A stretch of DNA of 62,571 bases, filler included, from Hausera hauseri (Eukaryota), in assembly GCA_046269625.1 (NCBI GenBank). It is 11 parts of 11 records of this genome, joined end to end, with 100 filler letters (N's around TTAATTAATTAA, not from the genome) between each part and the next. Parts side by side here need not be neighbours in the genome. Positions count along the whole stretch, not along the records: positions 58,517 to 62,571 come from JBJURY010790646.1; 10 more parts are not named here. The stretch is one strand, 5' to 3'. The stretch's first letter is position 1. The number at the start of each line of letters is the position of its first letter. The notes under the pieces are model-generated. The model saw nothing but the letters and a program-made list of their open reading frames with translations, ran no database searches and had not been told where the DNA came from. Shown piece after piece: positions 1 to 62,571 of the stretch. Position numbers and translations under genes: made by a program.

Positions 1-231
1 TGTAGGGTCGAGGTTACAAGACAGCGATACTACGCCAATGGAGAAAATAAAAAGGTAGTGGAGATACTGCCCCCAAAACCCACTACACCCTACCACTTTG
101 AACCGCAATCACAACAAGATGAATCAAATTCGGAAGCGGACTTACGTGAACAAATGAACCGGTTACGCGGCACCTCTTCTGACGCAATAAGCAGATCCGA
201 GAGTGCCGTTCAGGGAGGAGTAATGTTGTAG
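1..231 (+). CDS. C-terminal end of the retroelement 3' ORF (CRVEVTRQ...SAVQGGVML*), reading through the PPT into the LTR
   Basis: Frame 1 is open from 1 to TAG at 229-231; the end matches the reverse complement of 59226-59300; it starts with CRV, like the last RING residues CRA in contig 11. Confidence 0.7.
   Translation, partial: CRVEVTRQRYYANGENKKVVEILPPKPTTPYHFEPQSQQDESNSEADLREQMNRLRGTSSDAISRSESAVQGGVML
212..223 (+). promoter_or_regulatory. Polypurine tract (AGGGAGGAGTAA)
   Basis: Purine run immediately before the LTR start TGTTGTAG. Confidence 0.7.
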
Positions 232-931
232 AAAGTAGAAAATTCGCTATTTGTAAATATTTACACTAAAATGAAAGCGAAATTGAAAATGAAAATCGAA
301 ACCAAAACACCATATGTGTAGAAAGGCAAATTGTTTCATTTGTGATTAGGACAGAGAAATTGCAAAATCTTGCATGCCAAATGTAAAAAAAATAATTGGT
401 GTCTGAAACGAATGGAATTAAATCATACGAAATTGCAAGAGAAATAGATAAAAATTAGAAACTGTCGTTAATCACTTGCATGACATTACTATATAAGCAC
501 ACTGAAATAGTGTTGTATATAGACTGTAGAGAATTGTAGCGCCTATCTAGAAATTCTAAGAAATTCTTAACGACTGATACAGAGATTGGATCATCCTTTG
601 GAAATTCGGACTGTGAGACATTCAATGTTGATTATTGGTATTGTTATTTGTGCTGTAATAAAATATTTATTCATTAAACTTCTTATAGATTCCGTCGTTC
701 CTTACGACGGACTAGTACTACATTAAGATTAAACTGAAATCAAGCTTCATAGATAAGTTGAGAATTTTTTCTAAACTACGCAAGGCACAGCACGCAGTAC
801 ACGCATCCTAAACTAGTGCAAACATTTTAACGAGAACGTTAGAACTTATCTGCTAAATAAATATTGTTAAAATTGAGTTTCATAATTGTTATAGTTGGCT
901 ATTGCATAGGACCCACCTTCAACTACTAACA
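224..931 (+). repeat. LTR (~708 bp) of Ty3/Gypsy element
   Basis: TGTTGTAG...CTACTAACA termini, TATATAA at ~490, AATAAA at ~657; PPT on the left, PBS on the right. Confidence 0.75.
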
Positions 932-1002: not shown

Positions 1003-4000
1003 AATGAGCGCTACCGCAGCAAATAATTGGTTATAGATTGTTGTAAATTTAAAATTCGGGATTTATGAGAAACTCTCAGTATTATAACGACACATTATTG
1101 AATCAAGAACGAATATTGATAGATTTAAGTCATACAATAGTCTAAATTTTACTTTAAACGGCAAGAAGAATATTCATCTTCGCGAAACACGCATTAAAGT
1201 TTATAGACAAGATAAGACGTTGAGTAGACGCACTTTATTTGAAACAAATTTAACTAATATTGAACCTATTGACTTAAAACAACCTGTTGAATTTAAGGTT
1301 CCTGATAAGAGAATTAGAACTCGTAAGGCAATTAAGCAAAACCGAATAATTGTCGAAAATGGTTGAAAATCAAGCAGTAGAGCCGAAACTGGCCATTTTT
1401 ACACTTGACTCTCTGCATCTGCCGGCATACGACGGAGACTCCAACGGACTAAACGAATTACTGAGTACTTATAAGCAGTACGCAGAAGTGCTGTACTTGC
1501 ATCTAACGTAATGATTAAGCGTCTGTCACTATATTTAAAGAATTTGGCCGCGGGTGCCTATAGTGAGCTCACTGACGACGAGAAAAAAACCTGGTCATCC
1601 TTGGTAGGAGCCCTAAATCGAAAATTAATGCCGACTGTAATTCCGCAACAAAAACTCATGGCTTTTCAGAATAGAGTACAACAAATAGGTGAATCGATAG
1701 CCCAATTCCCTTTTGCCTTAAAGAAATTGGTGAACAGTTACGTAAGCACCTTAAGGATAGCAAGCATAGCCAAGGTTAAAATCGAAGCAGAACGCGAAGC
1801 CGCAGAAGGAGCAAGTCCTCCAGATTTAGGCGTTATGATGATGACGCAGTTAATAGATAGTATTTGGTCTAAAGACATAGTAAAGCAATTAATTCTAGCA
1901 CAACCACAGAACTTTGATAAGACATTGTAATTATCTCAGGACTTAGAAATGGCACTGGATAGATATACCAGAAACAACGACAGAAATTACAGAAATAACG
2001 ATCAAAGTGATCGAGGCGATAGAAATAGGAATAATAGAAATGGTAGGCGATTAAACTGGAATCATGGGGATCGGAATAAGAACGGTAGCTATGATCACAA
2101 AGGTAATCGGTATGGTAATCAGAATTTTGATAATAGCCGAAATAGTTCATCTAGTAAACTAAGCTACAATTCGGATAGACGCCTAGATAGCTCCAGAAAT
2201 TTTAACAATGGAAATCGACAGAATGACAGCCGAAGTTATGATAATAAACAATATGGGGACCCCAGACAAGCCCCGCAACATTAGAATTACAATAGGAATC
2301 CGAGTAGATAGAAATCTCCGGTAAATGAAGACGGTCGACAAAGGGTCGGCAGAAATGGCAACTTAATTTGCTACACATGTGGTCAAGAAGGACACATAGC
2401 AAGATCTTGTCCAAACCCACGAAGTGTTTCGCTTGTTGAGCCTAGCAAAACTAATGTAATAAAAAATGAAAACGTAGAAGCAATTTACTGTATCGGTAAG
2501 GACACAGGTATGATCATTGAAATACAAGATTTACGACGTTTCTTAAAGGCCCAGCCTGATACTAAGGACTCCAAAGTTTTAGTGGCCAAAAACAAGTACG
2601 AACATAAATTACGATTATTAGAAGTTTACCATGGACTGCGTGAGCCAGAAACCGAATATGAACATTCCATTGGCTTACCACGGCTTATCGACATAGCTCG
2701 GAAAAAGAACATTCCTACGATAAACAGAGTCAGAGGAAACAGGAAAACTCGAGACTCCGGATGAAGTAGATTTAGACGCAAAACCAGAATATATGGCAAA
2801 AAAGGTAAGTCAAAGGGTACACACCGACGTAGAAAAAGAATTTATGGAACCGCTAATACTTAAAATTACAAAGAATACAGTTCGCAGCCCATTGTTAAGA
2901 CGGAAACGTAAGGATCTTACGAGATCCCCAATGACTAAGTAAAAGTCTGACAGAAGGAAGGAAACCGAAACTGTTGGAAAGTGACACAGAATTCACTTTG
3001 AATATTTCGGAAATTAATTTAACTACGCCTGGCGAAACGGATGAGCAAACGAAATCCGTAAACGAAATAAACGATATATGTCCATTACCTATTAATGACA
3101 GAATAAGGTGAAAAACTCGATCCTAAGAAATGGAAAATCAGACGCTCGTGGAAAAATACTGATGAATTAAAGAGAATGAGGACTACCTGTCTAAACCCAG
3201 AGGTAGTGTAACAGAACCTAGAGAAACTTAAAGCAATGAGGTAGCAAGTGGATATATGTGATATGGAACAGAAGTTTGTAGAAAGATTGTACAAAAAGAT
3301 GAAATTATATAGTGAAGGGAAACTAAGTAAAGCTACAGACTTAGATCAACCTAACGAAATGGCAAAGATAACATTAGCCAGGTGGAAACACGAATTAGAA
3401 ATATGGATGAAAAGTGGAGTAAAGATCCCGGAGGCGTGGGCAACACTATCCAGGATGTCAAAGCTAGAATCAATCAAGCCCAGTTGCTATTGACCACATT
3501 AGAAGCCAACCCGAAACTAAAAAGTGTAACGCGTAACTTAGAGCGCATAATGAATGAAATTACATTTGCAATGGTCGAACGACTGAAGGAAAATCCGGCC
3601 AAAGAATGAAATGAAGTTGATCTAGAGATGTTTGGCATAGACTCAATAGATATTTCACCTTCAATGGAAATAATAAAAATCGCTTCTATCGCAACAAAAC
3701 AATATACAAATCTGGAAAATCGGATTAAAATTGAAATCGAAAAAAGATCGCGAATATGCAGTCTGAGAAATAGAATTATGCAAACAAATAATGATGAAAC
3801 ACAGAAAATAATTACGGCCTGTATCCTCGAGTTTGATGATTATAAAGATGAGTTCAACTACGCCCATCAGATCATTGATTTTATTAAAGGTCCAGGTGAT
3901 GAACTAAAAGACGCTCATAAAACGTTAGACAAAGCAATATGGGAAAAATTAAAAATCGATGACCAATTGAATGAGTGGTCCAGAGTAATAACGAGGTTGA

Positions 4001-10803: not shown

Positions 10804-10914
10804 TTCACTTTTGTTTAAACGCATCAATTCAAAGGGGAGGGTATAGGGTTTTGGTCCAGAACTCCCATTTTTCCTCTACTCACGTTGCCGGCTAGCTTTG
10901 CGGCTTGAATTGTT

Positions 10915-25970: not shown

Positions 25971-26031
25971 TTATAGTTTATTTAGAATAACTAATTTGCA
26001 TTTAGTAGGAAAATTACTTGTTTTAAATCCA
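25967..26031 (+). tRNA. trnA: tRNA-Ala(UGC)
   Basis: ACTAA-TTTGCAT-TTAGT. Confidence 0.8.
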
Positions 26032-26033
26032 AT

Positions 26034-26095
26034 CAAAAACAGTTTTAGAAAACATTAACTTTGGGAGTTAAAAGATAGTAATTTCTATTTTTGAA
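26034..26095 (+). tRNA. trnP: tRNA-Pro(UGG)
   Basis: TTAAC-TTTGGGA-GTTAA. Confidence 0.8.
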
Positions 26096-26509
26096 ATTTT
26101 AGGAATTGTTGTTAGAATATTTTTGTTATTTCAGATGCCTATTTTTTTGGGTGTTATTTTATTTTTGGTTTCTTTATTTCTTGTAATAATATTAAATATT
26201 TTTTTTAATTCTTGATACAGTTTAATTTTGTTTCTTGTTTATGTTGGAGGGTTGTTGGTTCTTTTTATTTATATGTGTATAATAAGATCTAATGAGAAAT
26301 TTGATTTTGGGGCAAGTTTTTGGTTTTTTTTTGGAGTAGTATTTTCCTTTTTTTTTAGCGAAAAGATGCCTTTTTTAGGTTTTTCTAAATTTGAAAGTTC
26401 AATAATATTAGAAATATCAATATTTATAGGGATGGTGATTTTGTTATTAGTTACTTTTTTATCTGTAATGCGTATTGTAAAGACAAAAAGAAGGTTGTTA
26501 TTGAACTAA
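26096..26509 (+). CDS. nad6: NADH dehydrogenase subunit 6
   Basis: FLVYVGGLLVLFIYM motif; ATT start, TAA stop. Confidence 0.85.
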
Positions 26510-28138: not shown

Positions 28139-29001
28139 AATTTTTACGTTTTTATGTGTTTTAGTAGCTGTAGCTTTTTATACACTTTATGAGCGAAAAA
28201 TTCTAGGTTATTCACAAATTCGAAAGGGCCCTAAAAGAGTAGGTTTTTTAGGTATTCTTCAACCTTTTTCGGATGCGGTAAAACTTTTTGTTAATGAAAA
28301 AATTATTCCTATAAAAAGGAACTTTCTTCTTTTTTGAGTAGCGCCTATTATAGGATTTTTAATATCTTTATTTTTATGAATTTTATACCCAAGTGAATTT
28401 TCAGTGAAATTTATTTGCTACGGGTTATTAATTTTTTTTTGTGTTTCAGCTTTAAATGTGTATACAATTTTACTAGCTGGTTGAACTTCGAATTCTAAGT
28501 ATGCATTTTTAGGGGCCTTGCGGGCTACAGCTCAAACAATTTCTTATGAAGTTATAATACTTTTAGTGTTAATGACTCCTGTGTTAGTTATTCTTGAGTC
28601 GAACCTAGAAATGTTTATAGTTTTTACCTCTTTACTTTTTTTACCCAGGGTATATGTGTGGTTTTCCAGAAGATTAGCAGAAACTAATCGAGCTCCATTT
28701 GATTTTGCAGAAGGAGAGAGAGAGTTGGTTTCTGGGTTTAACATTGAGTATGGTGGTGGCTTATTTGCACTTTTGTTCTTGGCTGAATATGCAAATATTA
28801 TTATTATGTCTATAATGACTAGTGTGTTTTTTTTTTATTCAACAGGATTTATTATACTAAGGATTACTATTTTACTGGTCTCTACATTTTTTTTGTTAAG
28901 ACGAGCTGCTTTTCCACGTCATCGTTATGATTTATTAATAATGTTGTGTTGAAAATCTTTTTTACCTTATAGAATTATGGTTTTATTTATGTGTTTAGTT
29001 T
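28119..29001 (+). CDS. nad1: NADH dehydrogenase subunit 1 (incomplete stop near 29001, or TAG at 29033)
   Basis: [39 protein letters not shown]. Confidence 0.93.
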
Positions 29002-29287
29002 GTACTTTGGTACAATTTTTTTTTTATGTTTAGTTATTCTTTTGGTTGCTTTTTGTTTAAATAAGAATTTTATTTTAAATAGATTAATTATTTTAGAAGG
29101 AATAATATTAGTTAGATTAGCTTTTTTATTATCATATTTGTTAACTTTAGATAAGTCTATTTTTCTTTTGGTTCTTTCGTTTGCTGCTTGTGAAGCATCT
29201 CTGGGGTTGTCTTTGTTGGTTAGGTTTTTACGACTACGGGGGAATAATAATATTAGTAGATTAGCTTTATTTTCATGATTTGCTTAA
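29000..29287 (+). CDS. nad4L: NADH dehydrogenase subunit 4L
   Basis: FAACEASLGLSLLV. Confidence 0.88.
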
Positions 29288-30363
29288 AATTCGTGAAACA
29301 ATCTCACTTCCAAGTCCTGTTAGAATTTCTATTTGGTGAAATGCAGGATCAATCTTAGGGTTATTATTAGTGATGCAAACTATTACAGGGTTGTTTTTGT
29401 CTATACACTATACATCTGATGTAGATAGAGCATTTTATTCAATTGTTCATATTATGCGAGATGTTCCAGGTGGGTGGGTTTTTCGTTTTTTACATGCAAA
29501 TGGAGCTAGATTCTTTTTTTTATTTTTGTATTTACACATTGGTCGGGGAATTTACTATCAATCATATTTAACACAATCTCGTACTTGAATAGTTGGAGTG
29601 ACTATTTTGTTAGTTAGAATGGCTACTGCTTTTTTAGGTTATGTATTGCCTTGAGGACAAATATCGTTTTGAGGTGCAACTGTTATTACAAACTTAATAT
29701 CTGCTGTTCCCTATTTTGGGCAAGCATTAGTTGAGTGGGTGTGGGGGAGGTTTTCGGTGGGTCAGCCAACGTTAACACGTTTTTTTAGGCTTCATTTTAT
29801 TATGCCCTTTTTAATTATAGTACTAGTTTTGATTCATATTATTTTTATTCATGACAAAGGTTCTACTAGTCCTTTGGGAGATCAAAATCATATTAGAAAG
29901 ATTAGTTTTCACCCATATTTTACTTGAAAAGACATTGTAGGTTTTTTAGTAATAATTTCAGGGATTTTATTCTTAGTTTACTTTTATCCTAATTTATTAG
30001 GAGATCCTGAAAATTTTACAAAAGCAAACTTTAAAGTTACTCCCACTCATATTCAACCTGAGTGATATTTTTTGTTTGCTTATGCTATTTTGCGTTCTAT
30101 CCCAAATAAACTAGGAGGGGTGATAGCGCTGGTTATGTCTATTTTTATTTTGTATTTTTTGCCTATTTCATCACTCTTTTATTCAATTCCCGGAAGGTTC
30201 TCGTCTTTTTTCCAACTTGTTTTTTGGGTGCTGGTTTCAGATTTTATTTTACTTACATGATTAGGTGCTTGCCCGGTTGAAAACCCCTATATAACATTGG
30301 CAGTACCTTGTACGATTCTTTATTTTGGGCTTTTTCCTTTTATATTATTTTTGACATGACGTT
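29280..30363 (+). CDS. cob: Cytochrome b
   Basis: [48 protein letters not shown]. Confidence 0.95.
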
Positions 30364-30424
30364 TTTTACTTAGTTTAATAAAAATTAGGGTTTGTCAAAT
30401 CCTTGATGCTTTTTTGCAGTTTAA
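30363..30424 (+). tRNA. trnD: tRNA-Asp(GUC)
   Basis: AGGGT-TTGTCAA-ATCCT. Confidence 0.75.
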
Positions 30425-30481
30425 ATTTAGTTTAATAAAAACCTTTAGTTGCAAACTAAATAATTCAATTTTGGAATTTTT
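30420..30481 (+). tRNA. trnC: tRNA-Cys(GCA)
   Basis: TTTAG-TTGCAAA-CTAAA. Confidence 0.75.
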
Positions 30482-30541
30482 TAACATAGCTTATATTAAA
30501 GCTTAGTGCTGAAGACGCTAAAAAGGGTTTTCCTGTTAAAA
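30479..30541 (+). tRNA. trnF: tRNA-Phe(GAA)
   Basis: TAGTG-CTGAAGA-CGCTA. Confidence 0.8.
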
Positions 30542-31171
30542 ATAAGTTTTTGAGGGCAGATATCATTATTTGATCCGGCTTCGCCTATTCAAGAAGAAAT
30601 AATTTTGTTTCATGATCATGCTATGGTATTGCTTTTAGGAATTTTTACTTTTGTTGCCTTTTTGGGTTTAAAACTTTTATTGAATAAGTTTTCTTCTCGA
30701 ACTATACTGGAAGCTCAGACCTTAGAAACAGTTTGAACAATTATTCCTGCGCTTTTACTTATTTGATTGGCACTACCTTCTTTGCGGTTACTTTATCTAT
30801 TAGATGAGTCTAGAAGTTCTTTGATTTTAAAAAGTACAGGTCATCAATGATATTGAAGATATGAAACTCCTTTTGGAAGGTTTGATTCTTACATAGTTAA
30901 TAATAATGATAACTTAGAAGTTGACAATCGTGTAATAACTCCATATAATATAAATACTAATGTTTTGACCACATCGGCTGATGTGCTTCACTCTTTTACA
31001 ATCCCGTCAGTTGGAATGAAAATGGATTCAGTTCCTGGTCGGCTAAATTCTTTTAACATGTTTTTAAATTGGCCTGGTGTTTATTATGGTCAATGTTCGG
31101 AGATTTGTGGTGCTAATCACTCATTTATACCTATTGTCTTAGAAGCTGTTTCGGTGGGTGATTACTTTTAA
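30542..31171 (+). CDS. cox2: Cytochrome c oxidase subunit II
   Basis: [29 protein letters not shown]; 210 codons. Confidence 0.95.
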
Positions 31172-31231
31172 TTAATTTTTAAAAGCTTTAAGCAGTTGAT
31201 TGTAAATCTTCTTTGGAAAATTATATTTTTT
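31172..31231 (+). tRNA. trnY: tRNA-Tyr(GUA)
   Basis: TTGTAAA loop with a weak stem; expected position. Confidence 0.6.
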
Positions 31232-31297
31232 CTTGCTTTTTTAGGTTAACTAAACCTTAGACCTTCAAAGTCTAAAATTCTTCTTTTGAAAAAGGTG
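31232..31297 (+). tRNA. trnW: tRNA-Trp(UCA)
   Basis: TAGAC-CTTCAAA-GTCTA. Confidence 0.8.
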
Positions 31298-31298
31298 C

Positions 31299-31361
31299 AT
31301 TTTTTTGTAGTATATAACATTACTATTACCTTCCAAGTAAAAAATCTCGTAAGAGCTTAAA
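31299..31361 (+). tRNA. trnG: tRNA-Gly(UCC)
   Basis: TTAC-CTTCCAA-GTAA. Confidence 0.75.
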
Positions 31362-31416
31362 AGTAGTTTAAAAAAAAACATAGGTTTGTGGATCCTAAAT
31401 TTCTTTTGGGCTTTTG
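31357..31416 (+). tRNA. trnH: tRNA-His(GUG)
   Basis: TAGG-TTTGTGGAT-CCTA. Confidence 0.7.
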
Positions 31417-31469
31417 AAAAGTTTAAATTAAAGCTGCTAACTTTGATTTGGGCTGTGGTCCGCTTTTCT
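31416..31469 (+). tRNA. trnS1: tRNA-Ser(GCU), D-armless
   Basis: GAAAAG...TAAAG-CTGCTAA-CTTTG...CTTTTC. Confidence 0.8.
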
Positions 31470-32772
31470 ATTTTAATAAGCGTATTTGGAATTTTGTTAG
31501 CCGTTTTATTAAGAGGAAGTTGAATAGTATTTTATTTATCAATATTTTGTGTAATGATATTAAGAATCTTTAATTTAAATCTATATTTTAATTCTTCTAT
31601 AATAATGGTGTTTTCTAGAAATAGCTTAAATTTAATATTAATTTGATTAAGTTCAATGTTATGTATTTTGGCGTTACTAGCTACCCCCGATAATAAAAAA
31701 TCAAAGTATTTTCTATTGATTTGGTCTCTTTTATTAACAATATGATTGGTTTTTTCGGTAGAGAGAATTATTTATTTTTATGTTTTTTTTGAAGTTTCTT
31801 TAATTCCTACTTTATTTTTAATTGTTAGTTGAGGTTATCAACCTGAACGACTTCAAGCTGGGAAATATATAATAGTCTATACGGTAGCTGCTTCTTTACC
31901 ATTGTTGATAGTATTAATCTATACTGTAAGTTTGTCAAACTCTAGAATAATTTTTTTAAACTCGGCTTCTGTTCCTTTAGCTATAGAAATTTTTATTCTT
32001 ATAGCATTTTTAGTAAAACTACCAATTTATTCTTTTCACTTGTGACTGCCTAAAGCCCATGTAGAAGCATCTTTAGCTGGATCAATAATCTTGGCTGGGA
32101 TCTTGCTAAAATTAGGAGGTTATGGATTATATTTAATAAACAAGATCTTTATAGTAGGAGGATCAAAAGATAGTTTTATTGTATGAATTATATCATTAGC
32201 AATGTGGGGTGGTGTTTTGGCAAGATTAATGTGTCTATTGCAAACAGATATAAAAGCCTATGTAGCCTATAGAAGTGTTAGTCATATATCTTTAGTTGTG
32301 GTTGGACTACTTAATGACCAGTTTTGAGGGTTTTTTAGCTCAGTTATTACAATGTTTGCACACGGATTAAGGTCGTCAGCTTTATTTTGCCTTACATATT
32401 TTACATACATAAAAATTCATTCGCGTAGTGTAGTTTATATGAAAGGGTTATTAAGGTTGTTTCCTGTTTTAAGATTTTTTTGGTTTTTTTTTTGTAGAAT
32501 TAATATAGCAGTACCCCCCACTTTAAATCTTTTAGGTGAAATAATAATTATCCCATCATTATACAGTCTTTCGATTTTTTTTATTTTAGTTATAGGGTTA
32601 ATGGTTTTTTTAAGAGCTGTTTATAACATGTTTCTTTATACAACTATTAATCATGGTTTCTCTGTTTATTTTAAACCCGCTCCTTCTTTAAATATAGGAC
32701 AAATGTTGACGCTTACTCTTCACCTTTTTCCACTAATAATAATTTTCAAGATTTTTGTTTTTGTTTGAGATG
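31470..32772 (+). CDS. nad4: NADH dehydrogenase subunit 4 (3' end approximate)
   Basis: [37 protein letters not shown]. Confidence 0.93.
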
Positions 32773-32784
32773 TTTTCCTTCGAG

Positions 32785-32895
32785 TTAAAGAGGGGTATTA
32801 TTTTTCCTTGAAAATAAAATAATATAAAATATTATAACAGATAAAACTGTAGTGATAAAAACCATTAATCCGGATGTTGGACTTAATTGAGGAAT
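32785..32895 (-). CDS. atp8: ATP synthase subunit 8 (36 aa)
   Basis: (I/M)PQLSP start, TAA stop. Confidence 0.85.
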   Translation of the reverse strand: MPQLSPTSGLMVFITTVLSVIIFYIILFSRKNNTPL

Positions 32896-32958
32896 AGAAT
32901 TAGCTTAAAAAAGATTCTTTTAATTAACAGTTAAAAGCATAAACAATGCTTCTAATTC
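32896..32958 (-). tRNA. trnN: tRNA-Asn(GUU)
   Basis: TTTAA-CTGTTAA-TTAAA on the minus strand. Confidence 0.8.
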
Positions 32959-33012
32959 CTTGGAATTTCCTCTTAGAAGCTCAAATCTTCTTGTGCTTTA
33001 CACCAAAGAAAA
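32959..33012 (-). tRNA. trnQ: tRNA-Gln(UUG)
   Basis: AGAAG-ATTTGAG-CTTCT on the minus strand. Confidence 0.7.
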
Positions 33013-33070
33013 AGGAAAATAAATTTTATATTAGACGCTTAAAATCTACGCATTCTTCTGCCACCTAAAA
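33010..33070 (-). tRNA. trnL2: tRNA-Leu(UAA)
   Basis: TAGAT-TTTAAGC-GTCTA; GGCAGA D-arm. Confidence 0.75.
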
Positions 33071-33692
33071 AAGAAGCATGTTCAAAACTGTAAAGTTTTA
33101 ATAAAAGGGTAAAAATGTAAGCTTGGATTATACATACAAAGACTTCAAATATGTTATAGAAAACAGACACTAGAAGGATAAAAAAAAACGTTTTTAGGTT
33201 AAGTGCACTTAAACAATTTGCAATTAATGCTAAAACAATATGTCCAGCTCTGATGTTTGCAATTAATCGTACAGTGAGAGTTAATGGTCGAATTAAGATT
33301 GAAATTGTTTCAATCATTACTAGAAAGGGAGTTAAGGCTAATGGAGCCCCAGCTGGAGCTAAGTGAGCGAGAGTTTTTTTTGGAGAATACACGAATCTTC
33401 TGATAATTAAAAGTAATCACATTGTTAAAGCCATACTTGAGGCAAATCATAATGAGCTTGATATAGAAAACACTAGTGGGGTTAGCCCTACTAGGTTTAT
33501 GTTAATAAGAAAAAATATTGTTGTTATAACCATTCCCCCAAATGGAATAAGGTTAGAATTTCCAAACCCGTATTTTGATAAAAATAAAACTATGTTTCTG
33601 TTAGAAAACATTATTATTGAAAATAATAAAGGGGGAAACCAAGTCCACACAGAGTTACAACCGTCCAAAGCCCTAAATAAGTCTGTGAAAAT
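33071..33692 (-). CDS. atp6: ATP synthase subunit 6
   Basis: LAHLAPAGAP, IRPLTLTVRLIANISAGH, IQAYIFTLL. Confidence 0.92.
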
Positions 33693-33693
33693 T

Positions 33694-33754
33694 AATTTTA
33701 GGAATAGTATATCCTTTTCTAAGGTCGAAACTTAGATGCAAATTGCTTAAAATT
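33694..33754 (-). tRNA. trnR: tRNA-Arg(UCG)
   Basis: CTAAG-TTTCGAC-CTTAG. Confidence 0.8.
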
Positions 33755-33815
33755 AGGTTTAATTAAAATAAACATTTTTATCTTGAAAAGATAGTGTGAA
33801 ACACTTCTAAAAAAG
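33755..33815 (-). tRNA. trnE: tRNA-Glu(UUC)
   Basis: TATC-TTTTCAA-GATA. Confidence 0.7.
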
Positions 33816-34531
33816 AAACAGTTTCCACTATTTCTACTATGTTACGACTTATCTCTTTTAATATTAAAGAGAGTGACGGGCGATTTGTGCACAGGCAAAA
33901 TGTGATTCATAAATTAATAGTTTTGTTTTATTACTTTTAAGTCCATCTTAATAAAAGTTTTAAATTTTTATTCTGAAAGTAAATAATATTGTAACTCACC
34001 TTAAGTCTTTATTATAGGCTATATTATGACCTGTTTTATTTGGGTTTATCTAAACCAATTTTAATTTTATCTAAAATAAAATTAAAACGGCAATATATAA
34101 GCTATTAAATAAAGTAAAACCAACTTGTGGGTTATCAATTATCTGGTAAGTTCCCCTAAAGTTTTTACCTACCGCCATGTTTTTTAAGTTTTAAATTTGT
34201 GATTTTTAGTGCTTAGGATGAGTGAACTTTGGCTTCTTAATAATAGGGTATCTAATCCTAGTTTTATTGTTGAAGTTTAAAATTTATTTTATTTGTTTAG
34301 GTTTATAAGACTTTTATATTTTACTAAGAAAAGTTTGCTTAAAAATAAATTTTTCCTGATAAAATTTTTTTCATATAGGTGTGACCGCGACTGCTGGCAC
34401 CTAATTTGTCATGAATTAGAAAGAAGACTGAATTTTTATTTCTAAAATTTTTCAAAGTTTCTAGCTAGATTGTTCGTAAGTGTTCCATATATAGTCTACC
34501 TTAATAAAAATTTTTCATTAAAACAAAGTGA
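33816..34531 (-). rRNA. rrnS: mt 12S rRNA
   Basis: Minus strand GTGCCAGCAGTCGCGGT, AGGATTAGATACCC, TCGCCCGTCAC, AAGTCGTAACA. Confidence 0.93.
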
Positions 34532-34597
34532 TTTTTAAGAGAAAAATTCTTGTTTGAGTTATGAGCCCAATAGCTTAAATATAGCTTATCTTAAAAA
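34532..34597 (-). tRNA. trnM: tRNA-Met(CAU)
   Basis: TTGGG-CTCATAA-CTCAA. Confidence 0.8.
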
Positions 34598-34941
34598 ACT
34601 GTTACCCAATCAATAGCCCCCTCTTTTCATTCGTGGAATAACCCAATTAGAAGGATTAACAAGAATAAAAAAAAAGATGTTATAATTAGTGTTGTCTTGT
34701 TAAAAGTTAGAATTGAAATAATTGGAAAAAGTAAGGATGCTTCGATATCAAAAATTAAAAATAGAATTACTAATATAAAAAAACGGATGGAAAAAGGTGA
34801 TCGTATTTCTCTTAAAGGTTCAAATCCGCATTCGAATGCGGATTTTTTTTCTTCTTCTGAAGCTGATGTGTAGTTGGTTAGGTTGAATAGTGTTCTAAGA
34901 ATTAGTCTTATTATGATACAGCAACTTAAAAACTCTAAAAT
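34598..34941 (-). CDS. nad3: NADH dehydrogenase subunit 3
   Basis: KSAFECGFEP, FLIFDIE, HEWKEGAIDW. Confidence 0.9.
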
Positions 34942-34998
34942 TTTTTTGTGAAAATATTATTTTCTTGAAAGATTTTCAAAATCCTTGCTTTACAAAAA
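34942..34998 (-). tRNA. trnS2: tRNA-Ser(UGA)
   Basis: AGGAT-TTTGAAA-ATCTT. Confidence 0.7.
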
Positions 34999-35058
34999 CA
35001 AATTTTGTGAAAAATCTTTGATTTACAAAATCATTGCTTTATATTAAGCTAATTTGAA
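34999..35058 (-). tRNA. trnT: tRNA-Thr(UGU)
   Basis: TGAT-TTTGTAA-ATCA. Confidence 0.75.
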
Positions 35059-35833
35059 AAGAACCTCATCAATATACTCTTACATATAAAAACAACCACA
35101 CCACATCTACGAAGTGTCAATATCAAGCTGCGGCTAAAAATCCAATATGATGATTAGTTCTAAAGTGAAAGTTTTTTAAACGAAAAAGACAGACAGTGAG
35201 AAAAATTGCTCCAACTGTAACGTGAAGTCCATGGAATCCTGTTGCTATAAAAAAACAGGAACCGTAAATTCCTTCTGCAATAGAGAATATTGTTTCATTA
35301 TATTCACCATATTGAAGAAGTAAAAAGTAAACTCCTAGTAGAACTGTTAAAAAGAGGCCTTGAATAGCAGAATTATATTTTCCCTCTTCAATACAATGAT
35401 GACACCAAGTAATTCTTACTCCTGATAGAAGAAGTACAGAAGTGTTTAATAGTGGTACCTGGAATGCTTGAAGGGTTAAAATTCCAGTTGGTGGTCAGTG
35501 AGCACCAACTTCAATAGTTGGTGCTAATCTTCTGTGAAAATATGCTCAAAAGAAAGCAAAAAAGAAACAAACCTCTGAGACAATAAACAATATAACCCCA
35601 ATCTTTAATCCTTTGGTTACATAAGAATTATGGTGTCCCTGGAATGTAGACTCTCGTGTGACGTCTCGTCATCAAAGAGTTGAAATTAAAGCTGTTAAAA
35701 ATAATCCTGTTAGTAAAAGAGTTTTAGATGAAAATCGAATTATGTAAAGTAAACCCACTGGTATACTTAAAATCCTTAATGAAATTGATAATGGTCATGG
35801 ACTAAATTCTACCAAGTGAAAAGGTTGTCGCAT
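35059..35833 (-). CDS. cox3: Cytochrome c oxidase subunit III
   Basis: [41 protein letters not shown]. Confidence 0.93.
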
Positions 35834-35873
35834 TTAAGAAAAACCTTTTGTTTATAAATTTATGTTAAAATTC

Positions 35874-35944
35874 TAAGCAGCCGCCGGTCGAACGGAAATC
35901 ATTGATGTTGATTAATAAGAAAATTATTAATATTTCGTTGCTTA
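35874..35944 (+). tRNA. trnI: tRNA-Ile(GAU)
   Basis: AATCA-TTGATGT-TGATT. Confidence 0.8.
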
Positions 35945-36824
35945 ATTAATTCTTCAAATTTGTTATTTTGTTTTATAGTGATATTAAGACCTGTTTTAGC
36001 TTTGAGTAGTGGTGATTGAGTTATTTGTTGAGCTGGTATAGAGTTGGGATTAATTGGTTTGTTTCCATTGATTAATTCTTCAGAGTCAATGATAAAATAT
36101 TTTTTAATTCAATCAGTGGCTAGTATTTTTTTATTATTAAGTGGGGTGATATTATTCTATTATCTTTCTGATTTTGGGGATTTGGTTTTTTTAATGTCAC
36201 TAAGATTAAAAATTGGTTTTTTTCCTGGCCATTTTTGGGTGCCTAGGTTAATTAGATCACTCACATGAATACAAATATTATTAGTGTTAGGACCAATAAA
36301 GATTGCTCCTTTTGGGTTTCTCACATTATTCAGAGACAAAATATTGTTTATTTTTTTATTGGGAAGAGCTAGGGCTATTGTTGGTTCTGTGCTTGGTTTT
36401 TCGCAAGCTAGAGCTCGGGGGATATTAGGTGCCTCTTCGGTTTCTCACTCTGGTTGGATAATAGTTTCAATGTTTTTTAATTTTTTATGAGGATATTTTA
36501 TTTGTTATTTGTTTATCTTATTTATAATGATAATTAGATTTTTGTTAAATGATAATTTTAATTCCAGGATTGTATTACTTTCGTTGAGAGGGCTTCCTCC
36601 TTTTTTAATATTTGTTTTTAAGGTAAAAATTTTATTAGGAATAATTTTTTCATTAGAATATTTATATTTTTTAATTTTAATTGTCAGTTCAGTTATTAGG
36701 TTAACGTTTTATATGAAGTTTTGTTTTTATTTTATATTAATAGTGGATAAGCTTAAAAATTTTTTTGTTACAGTTTTTTTTGTTATAGTAAACCTTTTAG
36801 GGGTTTTATTTTTGGGGGTTTTAT
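35945..36824 (+). CDS. nad2: NADH dehydrogenase subunit 2 (3' end approximate)
   Basis: KYFLIQS, KIGFFPGHFWVP, SSVSHSGW, LSGLPPF. Confidence 0.9.
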
Positions 36825-36882
36825 TTTTTGAGAGCTTGGATAAGCAATAAACTTTTAATTTATTGAGAGAAGACTTTTCTTC
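36825..36882 (+). tRNA. trnK: tRNA-Lys(UUU)
   Basis: ATAAA-CTTTTAA-TTTAT. Confidence 0.7.
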
Positions 36883-38394
<1,512 letters not shown>

Positions 38395-38455
38395 AGATAA
38401 AGTACTTTTGTATATCTTAGTTACATTAAGATGGACTTTTATTTTAAGTGTCTTT
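38395..38455 (+). tRNA. trnV: tRNA-Val(UAC)
   Basis: TCTTA-GTTACAT-TAAGA. Confidence 0.65.
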
Positions 38456-38577
38456 AAGTTTACTATTTTATTTTGTTTATAAAAAAAAAATTGAAAAATA
38501 TTTTATCTAGGAATATTACCTTTTGTATAAGTGTTTTATGAAAAATAACAAATGTTTGTTTTCTCGAAACTGATAGG

Positions 38578-39186
38578 TCAAATTTTTAAGAGAAAATATT
38601 CATGTGGTATAACGAATATTTGATTAAATATTAGGAATGAAAAGTTTTCATTATCAGTATTATCTAGATTTAAACTAAAGGTATTTAGTACATTTTCTCC
38701 TTGGGTTAAAATGGGATCTCTCAGCATTAAACGAACTTTAGTCTCTTCGTTTCTATTGAGTGTTCTCCCGCAGTTGGCTTGTAAAATGGCATTAATTTCG
38801 TCAAAAATCGCGTTCTCAGTGCCTAAAGAAGCGATAAAACTTTGACGAATCGCAAGCAACTCATCTGAATAATCCGTGTTGCTGTCCCGAATTGCACCAA
38901 AGTTTGCAGAATACAATCTGGTAAATGCTTCGCGTAAGTCTCTTTTTTCTTGCAGACTACTACAACGTTGAAAAGCTTGATTTAACAACGGCTGAACTAC
39001 ACCACTCAGGAAAATTGGAAGTCGCTCTGCAACCGTTTCTGGCAGTGCCGCGGTAGGGTGTCTCTGACCCATATTTGCTATATGTCCTAAACTTCCAGCA
39101 GGACAAGAGGGAGAATCGAAGGTAATATCATTCTCATTGTGGGAGCGTCTAATGTCTGCTAATTTAACCAGAAAGTTGCCACGCAT
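38578..39186 (-). CDS. Bacterial-type hypothetical protein fragment (possible Legionellales effector-like helical domain)
   Basis: 202-aa uninterrupted standard-code ORF with ADIRRSHN...DSPSCPAG motif; composition differs from the mtDNA. Confidence 0.5.
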   Translation of the reverse strand: MRGNFLVKLADIRRSHNENDITFDSPSCPAGSLGHIANMGQRHPTAALPETVAERLPIFLSGVVQPLLNQAFQRCSSLQEKRDLREAFTRLYSANFGAIRDSNTDYSDELLAIRQSFIASLGTENAIFDEINAILQANCGRTLNRNEETKVRLMLRDPILTQGENVLNTFSLNLDNTDNENFSFLIFNQIFVIPHEYFLLKI

Positions 39187-39261
39187 AAACTACTACCCGG
39201 CTAAAGCCGGTAGTTTTGGTAAACGCTTGTAAAGCAGATTAAAAGCGTGAACGCTAAAACT
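39187..39261 (-). mobile_element. IS200/IS605-like element end
   Basis: Hairpin CTACC(C)GGC-TAAA-GCCGGTAG followed by a second imperfect hairpin ACGCTT...AAGCGT. Confidence 0.5.
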
Positions 39262-42535: not shown

Positions 42536-43389
42536 TCATCTATCTAATTTAGATAAAAAACTATTAAATCGGGCAACATCAACCAATTTCATTCCATATT
42601 CCGATTTCAAAGTCTGATAAAAATAATCCGGTGCCTTGTTACCAACAGGTCCAACAAAGACAGCAACAAAGCACCATCGATTTCGGCGAATTTTAATTTT
42701 AAATTTCCCATTTGACAATCCGTCAGCCACTTTTCCACATCCTTTTTCGTCCATTGAGCGACACTTTTATATCCATCGACAACATCAGATCGATTAGTGG
42801 CGACTGGTGCCGCAACAACATTCACAATAACCGGCTCATCAACAGCCCCATAGTATGAATTCAAACTGCCCAACAAACCCTGAAAAGATTCATTGAAATT
42901 CCGTCGTTCGCTGAACTCGAAATACACTTTACTGCCCATGATAATGCCCAGCCATCCGCTGGCTTTGTAACGCGTTTCCAAAATCAGCGGAATAATCGGC
43001 TTTTTCAACGAGAACGCATATTCGGCTTCCGTACGGCAATTCGGACTCGTTCGATACGCTTCGGAAACAGCCATAACGAAAACGCCGGAATTTTCAATGC
43101 CAGCAGCCATAGCCTCCAATGTCGATCCTTTCATTTGGTCAACGTCAATCCAAACTCGAATTCCCACCTTTTCCAATTCGTCTTTGATCGTCAATACGAT
43201 GGATTTATTCGACCAGGAATAACTAAAGAAAACATCAAAATCAAATTTCGGTTTCGCCAATTTGTCCATCCGTCGTTGATGGACTGCCGTTTTGACTCGT
43301 TGATTTTTATTGTCAACCAACCAAAGAATTCCTTCATAGCTCTTCCTAATCGACTCCCTTTCGTGGTTTTCGTATCGTTTAATAACAGA
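42536..43389 (-). CDS. ARM-TIR-SAM protein, 5'-truncated, with one frameshift near 42645
   Basis: EGILW (ARM end), DVFFSYSW, RVWIDVDQM, SPNCRTEAEYA, GWLG (TIR_2), WTKKDVEKWL...IDGALL (SAM). Confidence 0.88.
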
Positions 43390-54784: not shown

Positions 54785-55147
54785 ATGATTGATTCCGAAA
54801 TCGTATCCATTTACAGTAAACCGCAGCAGGGCGGTGAACTGCAGTATTTCGTTGGTAAACAGTATGGCTCTGTATGGTTGCGTACATTGGCACTTTTAGC
54901 ATTTCCGGTGTTGAAGCGTATTGGAGCCGTGGCAGCAAAAATGGCACAGGATGTACTATATTAAAACAAATCGATTTTACTATCGCTGAAGGAACACGCC
55001 TTGTCAGAAATAAAAACCGCTGCACCGGGAGTCGTTGAATGGGTCAAAAAACAATTCGCTGGCAGTGGCTTGATGAGAAAACTTCGTAGAGCATCATCGA
55101 GCTCATCAACTATAAACAAACGTCGTCATCGTACGATTTTCGGTTGA
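54785..55147 (+). pseudogene. Small basic core-protein-like ORF
   Basis: MIDSE...QQGGELQYFVGKQYGS.WLRTL...AGSG...KRRHRTIFG with one internal stop; lies between penton and hexon. Confidence 0.55.
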
Positions 55148-55148
55148 T

Positions 55149-56340
55149 ATGGCATCTGCAAAATCTGAATTGTGTATATTTGACAAAGCGGCGCCACAAG
55201 TTGTTATTGACAGTGCGGCATTTGAAGAAATCTACTCCATTGATTCGGTTTCAACGGATGATAACATTGACATTCAATTCAACATTGTGGCATCGGACAA
55301 TGAATACCTGGATTTGAACGATACGCTACCCTATGTAAAAGTTATTGTTAAAAAGGATTCGTCAACGGTTTTTGCTGCAACAGACACTGACACACCGGCC
55401 AATTACTTTTTATTCACACTGTTGCAGGAAGCTTCACTGACTTTGAACAGCGTCAAAATCGAAGGCAACACCAGTCTGTACAGTATCAAAGCACCCACTG
55501 AAACGGCTCTGAATTACAGCGCGGACACGAAAACGACTCATTTGACGAAAATTATCGGATATGACGCCACTGCAGCAAACCGTCAGGCATGGGTGGCAAA
55601 ATCAAAGGCGCTTACAATGTGTGGACCGCTGTACTTTGACTTTTTCGATCAACCGAAATACTTAATACCCAGCGTTAAAGCCATAATTTGGCTCAAACGC
55701 AGTGACAATGTCTTTTGTTTGAAAACTACCGTTGCAAATCTCAAACCGGTACTGAAAATTACCGAGGCACGATTGTACGTACGTCGTGTAAAGGTAGAAC
55801 CATCCGTGCTCATGGGACATCGATTGGACTTGGAAACGCAAAATGCCTGTTACCCGATACAACACACAAAACTCGTCTTTCACACCATACTCAAAGGTTC
55901 GACAACATTTTACAAGGACGCACTGTTTGGCGACATGCGATTGCCAAAATTTGTGCTCGTTACATTTCAAACGACTGTTCAACAAACGGGTAGTTATACA
56001 ACGGATTCAAAAACGTTTACCCATAGCAATGTGAATTACATCAGTTTTAGTCAGAATGCGTTGAGACCTACAAACAGGACTTTGAGTCTAATGATTATGT
56101 TTGCACATATATGCAATCTATCGTGTGCAACATCGGATTACTGAACAAAAACATTAACAATGGCATATCTATGGATTTGTTTAAGTCCACCTATCCATTC
56201 TTTCTCTTTGTTCTGGCTCCGGATTATGACGTTGAACAGACTCAACTACATCAGCAGGGAAACCTACTACTGGAAGTTCATTTACGGAGTATTTGATGCC
56301 GAGGTTGAAATAAAGAAAAACGGAACCGTCATTGTGTAAA
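55149..56340 (+). CDS. Maverick/Polinton major capsid (double jelly-roll) protein, frameshifted near the C-terminus
   Basis: KSELCIF, EYLDLNDT, FFDQPKYLIP, ARLYVRRVKV, YPI, LPKFVLV, GNLLLEVH. Confidence 0.85.
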
Positions 56341-58516: not shown

Positions 58517-59233
58517 TTATTACACTTGAAGTTTTTGTACCTTAATGCAGGTTAGGTCTACCGTTATCGAGTAGACAGAATGTACCTCATAACAATTGGT
58601 TTAATCAGTAAAGCAGGTACTCGCTTGCGGTCCTGTGCGAATATGGTTAATTGAAGTTTTCTCTTAACTATATAATGTTACAGTGAAGATTTTAACCCTA
58701 GGGTAGTCAAATTGCTTTTAAGAAGCGAAGCAAACTATGAAGAAATTTACACAATGAAATATTTAACAACAATTACCAAATCTTCCAAGAAATAATGTCA
58801 AGCACAATATCGATTGTCTTTTAATCGTTTCCACGGATCAATAATTCAACTTCTAGCAATAACGGGAGTTTTCCTCAACAATTTCGTCGTCCTTCGAATT
58901 TTTCGCAAACTACAAACTACTCAACTCTTCCCATACTTATATAGTCTCATCCCTTTTAATTATTTTCTTTTATTCCAATTAATTCTGTTATAGATAATAT
59001 TGTTTCGCCTTTTTGTTCTTTATTATTAATTATGTCGTCTGCAAACTACAATCATTCAACTAGATTCAATTGTTCCTTTGTACAATTTCAATTATTTTCA
59101 ATTGTTTGATTCTACAATACAATTATATCCAGTTATTCTATTTTACAAATAAAATCAATTAGGTACACTAATGCGTATCTACATATTGCTATTTTCAATC
59201 TAATTACGAGCTTGTTACAGCTGTACTATAACA
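58517..59233 (-). repeat. 3' LTR, truncated by the contig end; PPT AGGGAGAAGAGA at 59245-59234
   Basis: TGTTATAG start after the PPT, same junction as 212-231. Confidence 0.7.
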
Positions 59234-61701
59234 TCTCTTCTCCCTGAGCGGCATCCTCGGATGTGCCCATTGCGTCAGGAGAGGTGACGCCTAAACGGTT
59301 TGACCGCAATAGATTCATACGCTGTATTAGACTGGGCTCGGAGTTTGTACTTGCTTGATTTTCTCTGGGATTCATTTCGAATTCATAGCTGTGATGCGGT
59401 TTTATTCTGACTACTCTGGTATAGCTCCCATTGGAAAAATATTTTAGGTCTGTAGCTTTGGCTCTACAGACTGGACAGGTAGTTTTGCCATTATCTAGTG
59501 TCCATTTTTCCTAGCAATCTCGATAATATTTATGTCGACAGTCCGAATTGTCCAAAATCACATAGCCCTGTTTAAGATTATCTTCGCACACTGGGCATTT
59601 TTTTCCTCTTTCCCAATTTTCATCGTCCAAATCGACTCGTATTGAAACCTCAATAGTTTCTATCACTAGTCCATCCTCATCCTGATATAGGTAACCATAC
59701 ATCCTCTTCTGTCTAGGGTTTATCGAACTTTTTTTCCGATCGCATCCCACGGGTACTAAGGTCCAATCGCTGATAGTATCTCAATCTAAATCGGGAACCT
59801 CATCAGTCGATCGGTACTTCTGATACAGATTTATCCACCGGAACTATAAGCTTTCCATTCCTTTTGGACTGAAAAATTGGGGTGATATATCGGCCTGTTT
59901 TTGGATTCTCCCAGATGTAGGTGTTTTCATAGACCTCTCTTGCTGGTGTAGTCTCTAGTCTGCTTTTTTTATCCGTTTTTGACTGTAGTATTCTGTCGTT
60001 ACCCAAATTCTATGGTAGTTCTCCGTGGTGGCGTAATGTATATCGTCTGTAGAACTTTTCTTCCGTAATATATTTATTTCTGTTATTTGCTCATTGGGTT
60101 TATCCGGTATTTCTTTAGTTTGTTTTGTTCTCTGTTGATTCGGTGTTTGTTCCTTTTGGTTACTTGGTCCTTCCGTTTTGCAGATTGGTCCTTTACTTTT
60201 ATATTCACAGTCCTCTTCCTGGTTCTTTTCTCTCTCTTTACTTTTTTTCTTAAATAAGTAATCGAAGACAGAAATGTTCCTTTTTATCGTTTTCCCGGTT
60301 TGAACTCCTTTGACATTATCTTCCTTTTTAAGGTACTTTTTGGGAACTTCTGGTGTCTTGAATTCATCACAGTTTTCGACCGGCTTTGTTACGAAACAAG
60401 TACCAGGCTTCTTATCTGTTTGTGGTTTATCTTCAGTTCTTTCGGATTTTAATCCCTGGATGGTTATCTGATAATTCCACTTCGGTGTAATTTCAACATT
60501 CCTCGGCGGGGAATACGGGCGGAAATGGTTTCTATATCTTGTACTAATTTCTTAGAGTTTGCGTTCTGCCCAGGTTTACTGGGAATCCATTCGTGTTCCC
60601 ACTTTAGTTCAGCACTTATGTCTCTTAGATATTGGGAGCGTTGACTAGCGGTCAGTAGTCGGCTTATTTTAATGTGTCCTCCACTCATCGCTTCTATCAT
60701 TAACTTAAATTGGCCTTCCACGGTCGGCGGTAAGTACTTTTTTTCTCTTTGACTCTGATTTCTATTTGTTCCATTACAGTTGGGTGGGTCTTTATATCTC
60801 TCTTATTCTGGCTATGTGTGTTACTGGTATTCTTAATTTTTTTACCATCCTCTCTACTTGGTAACTTACTATGACATAACCGTATAGACAATGTGCTGCT
60901 TCCTCTTGAACTAACCTGGAATCTTTTCCGTAAATTAAATGTTCCCTTTTTAGTCCGGTTACTTCTGCATAGGTTTCCTTTAGCTTCTTTCTTGGGTTAA
61001 TGATGTTCGAACAGACTTCGGTCCCGTTTGCTTCTCAAATATATATTTCAATTGGAGTATAATTTCCTAGGTTTTCTTCTCCGTAGTTTACTGCGACGAT
61101 CCGGATGTTCCTCGCATCTGCTACCAATTTAAATTAATGTAAGTGTGCATCATGTTCCTCTTCAGTGGGTCACTGTCGGAATTTTAGTGATGGTAATGGA
61201 ACGATGATTGTTTCTTCCTCGGTTATTTCAACCATCAGCTTCATGGGCAAAGCGGCTATGCGAAATTCCAGCTCGTAGTCGAGGTCGCGAAAATTTTTAC
61301 TATTAAATACGAAGGTGCTATATCTGCTTTGTCACCCTTAAAATTAGTCCAATTTTTAGTCCTTCGACCGATAATAAATTTTTCCGTCGGCTAGGTGTAT
61401 GAATAATTTCTGTTCTTTGTCTGTTCTATACTGAGTGATCTGTCGTAAGGGGTATGCCCTTGCATCCTTATCGTCTCTCTATGCGTATAAGTAGACAGCT
61501 CTAGCTTCCTCAGTTGTTCCTTTTAGACTATTTGGAATGTCGTTGACCTTTTAGAACTGGATAAGGGTTTGCCTTTGTAGTTCCGTGTTGATCTGTCTGT
61601 AAATAGCTTTGGAATTTGGAGTCAGGACGGTTACGTATTGTTGCAAATATCCGTCGATACTAAGTCGACTCGCTTTCATCTCGATCTGGTTACTTACTAA
61701 T
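59226..61701 (-). pseudogene. Degenerate 3' accessory ORF with a C-terminal RING finger (~59455-59600)
   Basis: CPVC-x13-CRHKYYRDC-x12-CPVCR; ends ML* inside the LTR; begins at a strong splice acceptor. Confidence 0.7.
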
Positions 61702-61799
61702 CTGAAAAAGAAAACATAAAGGTTAATCTTAAAACAAAGTATGGCTTTAAACCGAAACCAATTATTTGTTTGATGACAGAATAACCTGATTTGTAATTG

Positions 61800-62400
61800 T
61801 CAGGTTATTTTATCATACGGGTTTATAGGATTTTCCGCTTCCCTTAATTCCCATTCTAAACTTTTAGGACGCTTAGAATAATGATTTTTTGCAACTAATC
61901 GAAAAATCGCAATTAACATAATGAGAACAAACGTTGATAGTACTGTAACGGATACAATCGGTAAGATGGTTAATCCTAACGGTACTTGGGTAGTAACTAA
62001 AGTTGTAGTTTCGTCGTCTTTATCCGCACATAAGTGCGACTCTACATGAATTTCGTCTAAGGTACGTAATATAATTGTTTGGTTTTGCTTATTCTCTGCA
62101 TGCACTTGTACTATGCATTCAGATTGTGGTTTTAGTAAGTTGCACTCTGTTCAATAAGTATTTTTAAATAAGATTACAATTTGATTATTATATGTTGTTC
62201 GACAACTTATGTGTTTATCGTAATTTTGTTTATTTTCCACAAAGAACACGATTTTATACCGGTGCGTCGATTATTTGATAGATACGCTGTCTAACTCGGC
62301 TTTAGGTATGTTGCTCGCTGTAACGGTTCGGGTAGTGGAATTAACTTTAGTGGTCGATGTGGTTGTGCTTGCAACGATGAATATTCAAATTCCACAAAAT
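61800..62400 (-). pseudogene. Type I membrane protein: Thr-rich stalk, FN3-like domain, TM helix and short tail
   Basis: STTTSTTKVNSTT; ECNLLKPQSECIVQVHAEN; LTILPIVSVTVLSTFVLIMLIAIF-RL; tail ENPINPY. Confidence 0.6.
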
Positions 62401-62571
62401 AGAATTTTAAATTTCGCAATAAAAGAACAATGTAATCTACGATAATAATTCCAAAAACAGGTTCCAAAACTGCAATAGAAAAACAAGATCGATAAATTCA
62501 AAACACGTTTTTAAAGGCGAAAAACTGTTTATTATTAAAACAAAATTTTTTAAAAGAAATTCCTAACTTTA

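Follow-up and report, generated by a model that had tools for sequence, protein, structure and literature searches.

A decayed retrotransposon 3' end with a membrane-protein gene and a predicted pseudonuclease-RING gene in the Hausera hauseri assembly

Gag and pol, in some cases with env, are usually seen as nearly all that a retrotransposon carries. What else such an element may encode, and what the additional genes may do, is the question raised by one contig of the Hausera hauseri assembly GCA_046269625.1. The DNA analysed (62,571 nucleotides, hereafter the window) consists of 11 contigs joined by N spacers, and the region studied is the last of these (58517–62571, minus strand), for which a giant Gypsy retroelement with a fibronectin type III (FN3)-like membrane protein and a RING E3-like open reading frame (ORF) at its 3' end had been predicted. 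Its layout identifies the region as the decayed 3' end of an animal long terminal repeat (LTR) retrotransposon that probably belongs to the Ty3/Gypsy group, and the domains of its long ORF predict an RNA-binding ubiquitin ligase as the most likely product. Accessory-rich elements of the Ty3/Gypsy type are already known, and the cassette is most likely a new form among them.

The long accessory gene and its setting

Read on the minus strand, the contig leads from a membrane-protein ORF, through a hairpin over its stop codon and an acceptor-like site, to a long RING-containing ORF, a polypurine tract (PPT) and an LTR (Table 1). Apart from the hairpin, this is the order originally predicted, and it is borne out by ORF, Pfam and motif reading. 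The long ORF (2,454 bp) reads through the PPT and ends at a stop codon inside the LTR, which has the TG..CA inverted ends that, together with a PPT, are expected of Ty3/Gypsy elements; the flank beyond it has no primer-binding site (PBS). On the minus strand of the contig, a YAG preceded by 12 or more pyrimidines in 14 positions occurs only once, at 61702, and this AG is a candidate splice acceptor, splicing being proposed from the motif layout.

The name RING E3-like ORF describes the long ORF only in part. The RING itself is confirmed in the window copy (zf-RING_2, E 2.8e-8, above the Pfam cut-off), but about half of the ORF consists of a dead DEDDh exonuclease and a beta-barrel that the original prediction had not seen. 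Both were delimited with the help of P0009, an intact natural relative of 870 aa that is about 40% identical to the window long ORF and collinear with it (32–46% identity over four segments), and whose RING scores above the Pfam cut-off with a complete C3HC4 set in eight-ligand RING spacing. Searching the full library gave 114 matches, mostly unrelated RINGs and with no close host gene among them; seven cover the front half, four of which carry RNase_T (PF00929). Neither a homologue search with the front half of the long ORF nor a search of viral and metagenome contigs with P0009 returned a match.

The exonuclease is of the ISG20/REX4 type. A 20-row family profile matches ISG20L2 (E 3e-20) and ISG20 (E 9e-12), and the P0009 model aligns with ISG20 over residues 243–417 (VIA Z 16.9, root-mean-square deviation 2.8, 157 aligned; Foldseek E 4e-7), which places it in the DnaQ-like fold. 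Mean predicted local distance difference test (pLDDT) of this model is 49, with values mostly of 70–88 over residues 61–200 and 241–350. The positions of the DEDDh motifs were located on the alignment with ISG20, where none of the five catalytic residues (D, E, D, H, D) is kept in P0009 or in the window copy. Across the family, the D-x-E of ExoI is kept in 14 of the 19 alignment rows printed and its Asp is absent from five (the window copy, P0009, P0010, P0012 and P0049), while H-x4-D is kept in all 12 loci reaching that motif and Glu at ExoII in all; L013, with a broken ORF, was left out of this alignment. The window copy, P0009 and P0010 share the same ExoI replacement despite only 40–50% identity. 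Because P0009 and P0010 are intact, this loss is older than the decay of the window copy and marks the subfamily as one of pseudoenzymes. In a tree of 21 barrel-plus-nuclease rows, branches are long and the dead versions form no supported clade, and no order of events was drawn from it.

Ahead of the nuclease, residues 52–210 of P0009 are predicted to form a double-stranded beta-helix similar to those of 2-oxoglutarate (2OG)-Fe(II) oxygenases (VIA Z 8.2–9.8 over 131–142 residues against Ofd2, vCPH, ALKBH6, ALKBH1, AlkB and P4H). The barrel contains one near-invariant His (P0009 H146), and an HxD/E...H metal triad is not visible in the 19-row alignment; the barrel is predicted to be oxygenase-like in fold and in nothing beyond it.

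This region occurs in many repeated copies, of which the one in the window is dead debris. The membrane ORF has three in-frame stops in 236 codons, and the long ORF is closed by 12 stops across four counted segments and by at least three frame changes. In sequencing run X1, 3,993 contigs with at least 80% identity cover all 30 bins of the region, which together with the intact P0009 supports the prediction that both ORFs are features of a family and not of a one-off chimera. No RNA sequencing run is among the runs listed as matching. At a minimum, some of the decay is peculiar to this copy, because at least 5 of the 15 counted stops fall at one of the 40 listed sites (there are 1,069 more) at which nearly all X1 contigs differ.

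The zone between the two ORFs has features of its own. The hairpin has a z score matched by none of 200 shuffles, and an Rfam scan gave no family at gathering score and one sub-threshold match. The stretch 61773–61816 is covered far more deeply by X1 contigs than the ORFs on either side, loose ends mark its borders, and the hairpin/acceptor zone is apparently a cis element common to many subfamilies. The PPT was also considered as a site of special RNA structure, a possibility rejected at z about -0.9 in both copies examined (RNA fold against shuffles).

Table 1. Coordinates of features in the studied contig (58517–62571) and in sister contig 1, counted along the window
Feature	Coordinates	Strand	Remarks
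Decayed type I membrane-protein ORF	61800..62510	-	3 stops; 5' end close to contig edge
Signal-peptide-like hydrophobic stretch	62373..62429	-	Kyte-Doolittle 2.08
Ectodomain, ~90 aa, two Cys	62037..62312	-	FN3-like by eye only
Transmembrane helix	61893..61973	-	Hydropathy 2.76; helix 180-213 in model
Stem-loop, 17 bp, spanning membrane-ORF stop codon	61773..61816	-	RNA fold z -5.35
Branch-point-like motif, pyrimidine tract and splice-acceptor-like AG	61702..61730	-	22 nt before long-ORF ATG
Decayed long accessory ORF (predicted beta-barrel, dead DEDDh exonuclease, charged linker, RING-HC)	59226..61679	-	
Predicted double-stranded beta-helix, 2OG-Fe(II)-oxygenase-like	61210..61658	-	Boundaries mapped from P0009
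ISG20/REX4-like DEDDh exonuclease domain without catalytic residues	60590..61110	-	Spans frame changes; boundaries mapped from P0009
RING finger	59466..59597	-	zf-RING_2; one ligand missing and one stop in window copy
PPT	59234..59245	-	12 purines immediately preceding TG
3' LTR, 558 bp	58676..59233	-	7/8 terminal bases inverted-complementary; far end inferred
Sister element, ORF tail from last RING cysteine to stop	1..231	+	PPT 212-223
Sister element LTR, 708 bp	224..931	+	Followed by PBS-like site at 934
Sister gag remnant with CCHC knuckle	1363..2764	+	Coding-like sequence continues to contig end

The membrane-protein ORF

Judged by hydropathy alone, the first ORF has the topology of a type I membrane protein, with a signal-like stretch, an ectodomain, one transmembrane (TM) segment and a short tail. 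About 130 aa lie between the signal-like stretch and the TM segment, which comes after a Ser/Thr stalk; beyond it, a tail of 30 aa ends in a tyrosine motif (YxxI). The FN3-like fold of the original description stays putative: no match for the window protein was found in Pfam, PDB or database searches, the single-sequence fold of the ORF is unusable (pLDDT 46.6), and the label rests on motif resemblance and on an analogue from another lineage (locus L007), not on a match for the window protein. A profile of seven putative FN3 domains likewise had 0 matches in PDB, and in a leave-one-out profile the window domain reached E 0.58, ranked behind three background tiles. The homologue search gave no match outside, phages included. 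The sole signal came from the membrane-proximal domain of another ORF in the window (16069–17571; tblastn E 0.039), a domain pair with z 4.1 (1 of 500 shuffles) that was the best of 21 pairs tested.

That signal comes from a second type I membrane ORF (minus strand; 499 codons, two stops), which has a signal-like stretch and a C-terminal TM segment and lies behind a 790-codon ORF remnant without a Pfam family; the two together (16069–20142) may be a further accessory region belonging to this lineage. An Env of the F or gB type was considered for the ORF of the studied contig and rejected: Pfam shows neither an env nor a fusion family at E values of up to 1, and the ectodomain is about 130 aa long.

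Sister elements and related loci

The predicted LTR-element context is supported by the first contig of the window (contig 1), which carries an ORF tail and a PPT, then an LTR, a PBS-like site and a CCHC-knuckle gag. The claim that the same PPT/LTR junction opens contig 1 is correct as to a related junction, with 75 nt of DNA at 81% identity (E 2e-14) and a tail of 76 codons at 42% identity to the long-ORF tail (E 4e-15; against P0009, E 3e-6), but not as to the same element: the 558-bp and 708-bp LTRs do not align. Since the DNA aligns over only 75 nt and the LTRs not at all, contig 1 is classified by sequence as a sister family. Its gag matches zf-CCHC (E 4.6e-7) and the gag of locus L001 (E 2e-8), and its order of 3' end, LTR and gag may reflect either a tandem arrangement or sequences joined across the LTR during assembly. 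The 1.7 kb after the knuckle shows neither a protease motif nor a Pfam family scoring above cut-off, a result consistent with an oversized ORF1, though it is no measure of element size. A PBS and Gypsy-type gag behind a family LTR are thus found in contig 1 and L001, not in the studied contig. As for the predicted giant size, no contig joins pol to the accessory region.

A decayed Gypsy-type pol, unlinked to the studied contig, lies at 10547–15783 (minus strand; reverse transcriptase E 6e-23), with RNase H- and integrase-like stretches following by eye. The 5' end of a third member, with an LTR-end-like motif, PBS-like site and gag, is found at 20245–21240 (plus strand), its gag having 77% DNA identity to contig 1 over 309 nt.

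Scanning with active relatives of the nuclease recovered 14 metagenome loci (L001–L014), whose nucleases retain the majority of the catalytic residues, and the same relatives found none among viral contigs. An LTR-like junction follows within about 200 nt of the nuclease stop in L001–L005 (5 of the 11 with printed downstream DNA) and at about 470 nt in L007; none occurs within the 260 nt printed for L008–L012. In L001, the sequence continues with a 1.6-kb LTR-like stretch, a PBS and gag (PF03732 E 2.8e-6). The nuclease ATG is preceded by YAG within 5 nt in nine of ten loci printed, which supports spliced expression. No RING is listed in the same ORF for the exonuclease ORFs of the relatives scanned; upstream in L002 and L004, a complete TRAF ORF (RING, zinc finger and MATH; MATH E 7e-29) is accompanied by more RING ORFs, and coiled-coil ORFs occur in several related loci. 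L007 has the same order of gene types as the studied contig, with an upstream protein of 504 aa that carries a signal-like stretch and a TM segment and whose best Atlas family matches are FNDC5/FNDC4 at 0.91, 10 of 10 sharing the clan.

The element-borne TRAF genes of L002 (54–1845) and L004 (1–3999) are intact and include a coiled coil, with several stand-alone RING ORFs in a row. The PPT slot of L001–L004 (about 170–200 nt past the nuclease ORF) and L007 (about 5550) holds a run of C before GAGATA-TG, where plus-strand priming would be expected; the slot of L005 has a G run there instead, in an otherwise matching context.

Elsewhere, the window is of mixed composition, with an invertebrate mitogenome beside an interferon-regulatory-factor fragment. 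The near-complete mitogenome (25166–39261, ~14 kb, code 5) has nad4 after cox2, in a gene order that otherwise resembles that of heterobranch snails. The fragment (6546–7124, minus strand; PF10401 E 5e-50), vertebrate-like and on a contig richer in GC, suggests vertebrate DNA in the sample. A 342-codon ORF at 55116–56144 (plus strand) has no Pfam match above cut-off and resembles the major capsid protein of Polintons/adintoviruses, and a TIR_2 domain (42607–43389, minus strand; E 8e-23) is followed by a weak SAM match.

Interpretation and relation to known systems

The reading favoured here, at slightly better than even weight, combines spliced accessory genes, an RNA-binding E3 directed at bound host factors and a non-fusogenic surface ligand. 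An ancestor of the wider lineage that keeps D-x-E and H-x4-D would have captured the nuclease from a REX4/ISG20-like host gene; in the branch represented here, it would have lost catalysis while keeping RNA binding, and gained a RING by fusion. Together, the dead nuclease and beta-barrel may then hold element RNA or a host ribonucleoprotein, with the RING ubiquitinating host silencing or decay proteins bound there. Both genes would be expressed from spliced RNAs, and the membrane protein could address capsid-bearing cells or vesicles to their targets, fusion being supplied by another gene. Host modulation, the role originally proposed, is likewise putative.

Several results weigh against this reading. 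No pol is present on the studied contig, contig 1 or L001–L014, and for lack of a linked pol the Gypsy label rests on the gag type, PBS and PPT of sister contigs. Beyond the window copy, contig 1 and P0009, no RING fusion is seen, and the P0009 model has pLDDT under 51 in the RING region. For the barrel, the fold Z reaches only 8.2–9.8, hhalign against 77 bacterial AlkB scores 11.4 (inside the shuffled range of 8.2–16.2) and P0009 55–215 has no usable Atlas match. Between the membrane protein of the studied contig and the L007 protein, no homology is detected (blastp E 1.4; z 0.8 or less), and Atlas recognition of the latter is below threshold (1721 < 2300). X1 is the sole matching sequencing run listed and may be the run from which this DNA derives, and none of the eight X1 pieces listed (there are 4,044 more) extends well into both ORFs.

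The same element could instead use its pseudonuclease as an RNA chaperone, an export or packaging adaptor (Rev/CERV-like) or a decoy shielding 3' ends, with the RING as a scaffold. This is unlikely but has a precedent in Cer1, whose accessory protein, made by splicing and containing an enzyme-like domain that is inactive, is described, in the relevant part of the source, as required for export of genomic RNA (PMC10309623); most relatives also lack a RING in the nuclease ORF, so that the core function does not need one. Retention of every C3HC4 ligand in P0009 speaks for a working RING, and the RING and TRAF ORFs that relatives carry as distinct genes in the corresponding region indicate repeated recruitment of ubiquitin machinery. 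That the ORFs are mere passengers, pieces of host mRNA without function for the element, is quite improbable: the copy in the window is heavily broken and its membrane ORF has no outside homologue, but the 870-aa relative is still open at about 40% identity, the fold is conserved after catalytic loss, the position at the 3' LTR is fixed across very distant lineages and the 114 matches include no close host gene. These counter-arguments are weaker for the membrane ORF. Occupying the env slot, that ORF could itself be the fusogen, either as what is left of an env or as a small protein resembling FAST or sORF2; small transmembrane proteins are described as driving Env-independent transfer in MDG1-group elements (in part of bioRxiv 2025.03.14.642691), and rotifer elements with short TM ORF3s are described in a section of PMC5408684. 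This is very unlikely given the lack of any env or fusion family up to the same Pfam limit, a span of ~130 aa against the 600-aa F-type env that the same section describes for rotifer elements, and the FN3-like appearance of the analogous L007 protein. It is barely conceivable that repeats with no relation to each other were fused into this contig during assembly. Such an artefact might arise in a short-read assembly of a high-copy repeat, and X1 loose ends cluster between both ORFs (61677, 61767 and 61817); yet one X1 contig (61423–61803) crosses the acceptor, the arrangement of stop, acceptor and ATG is orderly, and L007 shows the same order of gene types.

A broader version of the favoured reading, which is doubtful, would posit an undescribed lineage of large animal Ty3/Gypsy elements with a modular, spliced 3' accessory region resembling that of complex viruses. 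In it, FN3-type mimics of receptors would direct vesicles bearing capsids to target cells, TRAF and RING mimics would be recruited, and the terminal oxygenase-barrel/ISG20 protein would, in the present branch, have become an RNA-sensing ubiquitin ligase made of two dead enzymes, so that a captured nuclease of antiviral type serves as counter-defence.

No description of this cassette was found in the literature searched, from which Repbase, Grohme 2018 and supplements were outside scope. The closest comparison is with the planarian Burro/GYPSM1 elements, compared by description only, whose extra domains and env, according to the section devoted to them, lie mostly within a 4,900-aa ORF1 (PMC6431247). 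They may share with the present family a long gag-led ORF and, in the same section, ubiquitin- and apoptosis-related domains (RING-like AIR1, MATH_TRAF and BIR; PMC6431247), the TRAF-MATH ORFs of the distant relatives L002 and L004 being a further likeness. In contrast, the accessory genes here are separate 3' ORFs; that section names no DEDDh, oxygenase-like or FN3-like ORF (PMC6431247), and no MATH/TRAF, BIR, BCL2 or ankyrin domain is found in the studied contig. Kinship with Burro, which PMC11410931 names once, and giant size are plausible. DnaQ-like exonucleases are listed as known accessory domains in a passage of a review (PMC6338049), and the main text of a survey of env-carrying elements has no RING, exonuclease or fibronectin (PMC13524379). 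Among LTR elements of bdelloid rotifers, Juno and Vesta have a DnaQ-like exonuclease in a 3' ORF replacing env, and their sister clades have short TM ORF3s; the passages on this ORF3 describe an RNase D-like DEDDy enzyme with catalytic residues present and report no TM segment or RING (PMC5408684). The present nuclease is instead a dead DEDDh enzyme of the ISG20/REX4 type, fused to a beta-barrel and RING and placed beside a membrane ORF. The 25-kb AlkB-carrying Gypsy elements of Phalaenopsis also have a domain of the 2OG-oxygenase fold in an extra ORF, described in part of the source as an active m6A demethylase (PMC9289625). No metal triad is seen in the present barrel, for which kinship with AlkB is suggested by a predicted fold only.

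Two host systems offer functional parallels. The vertebrate protein PML carries a RING. In PML/Plex9, a DEDDh-like domain is tied to ubiquitin-proteasome control of retroelements, as set out in the relevant part of the source (PMC10123124); these are host restriction factors with TRIM architecture and a TREX-like nuclease, unlike the element-encoded, ISG20-like domain described here. Drosophila Sas, according to excerpts of its description, combines a signal peptide, FN3 repeats, a single TM segment and a short tail with a tyrosine motif, binds a capsid protein derived from Gypsy Gag and targets Arc-capsid vesicles (bioRxiv 2022.09.06.506798). Sas is a host gene with an NPxY tail as opposed to the YxxI of the window protein, and is a functional analogue only, with no homology claimed.

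Under the favoured reading, a captured nuclease that was kept after catalytic loss and fused to a RING is a candidate route for countering RNA silencing or decay, and the env slot is proposed to hold a non-fusogenic surface protein. The natural series from active (L001–L014) to dead (P0009) nucleases, together with the intactness of P0009, makes the question of what the pseudoenzyme does a testable one.

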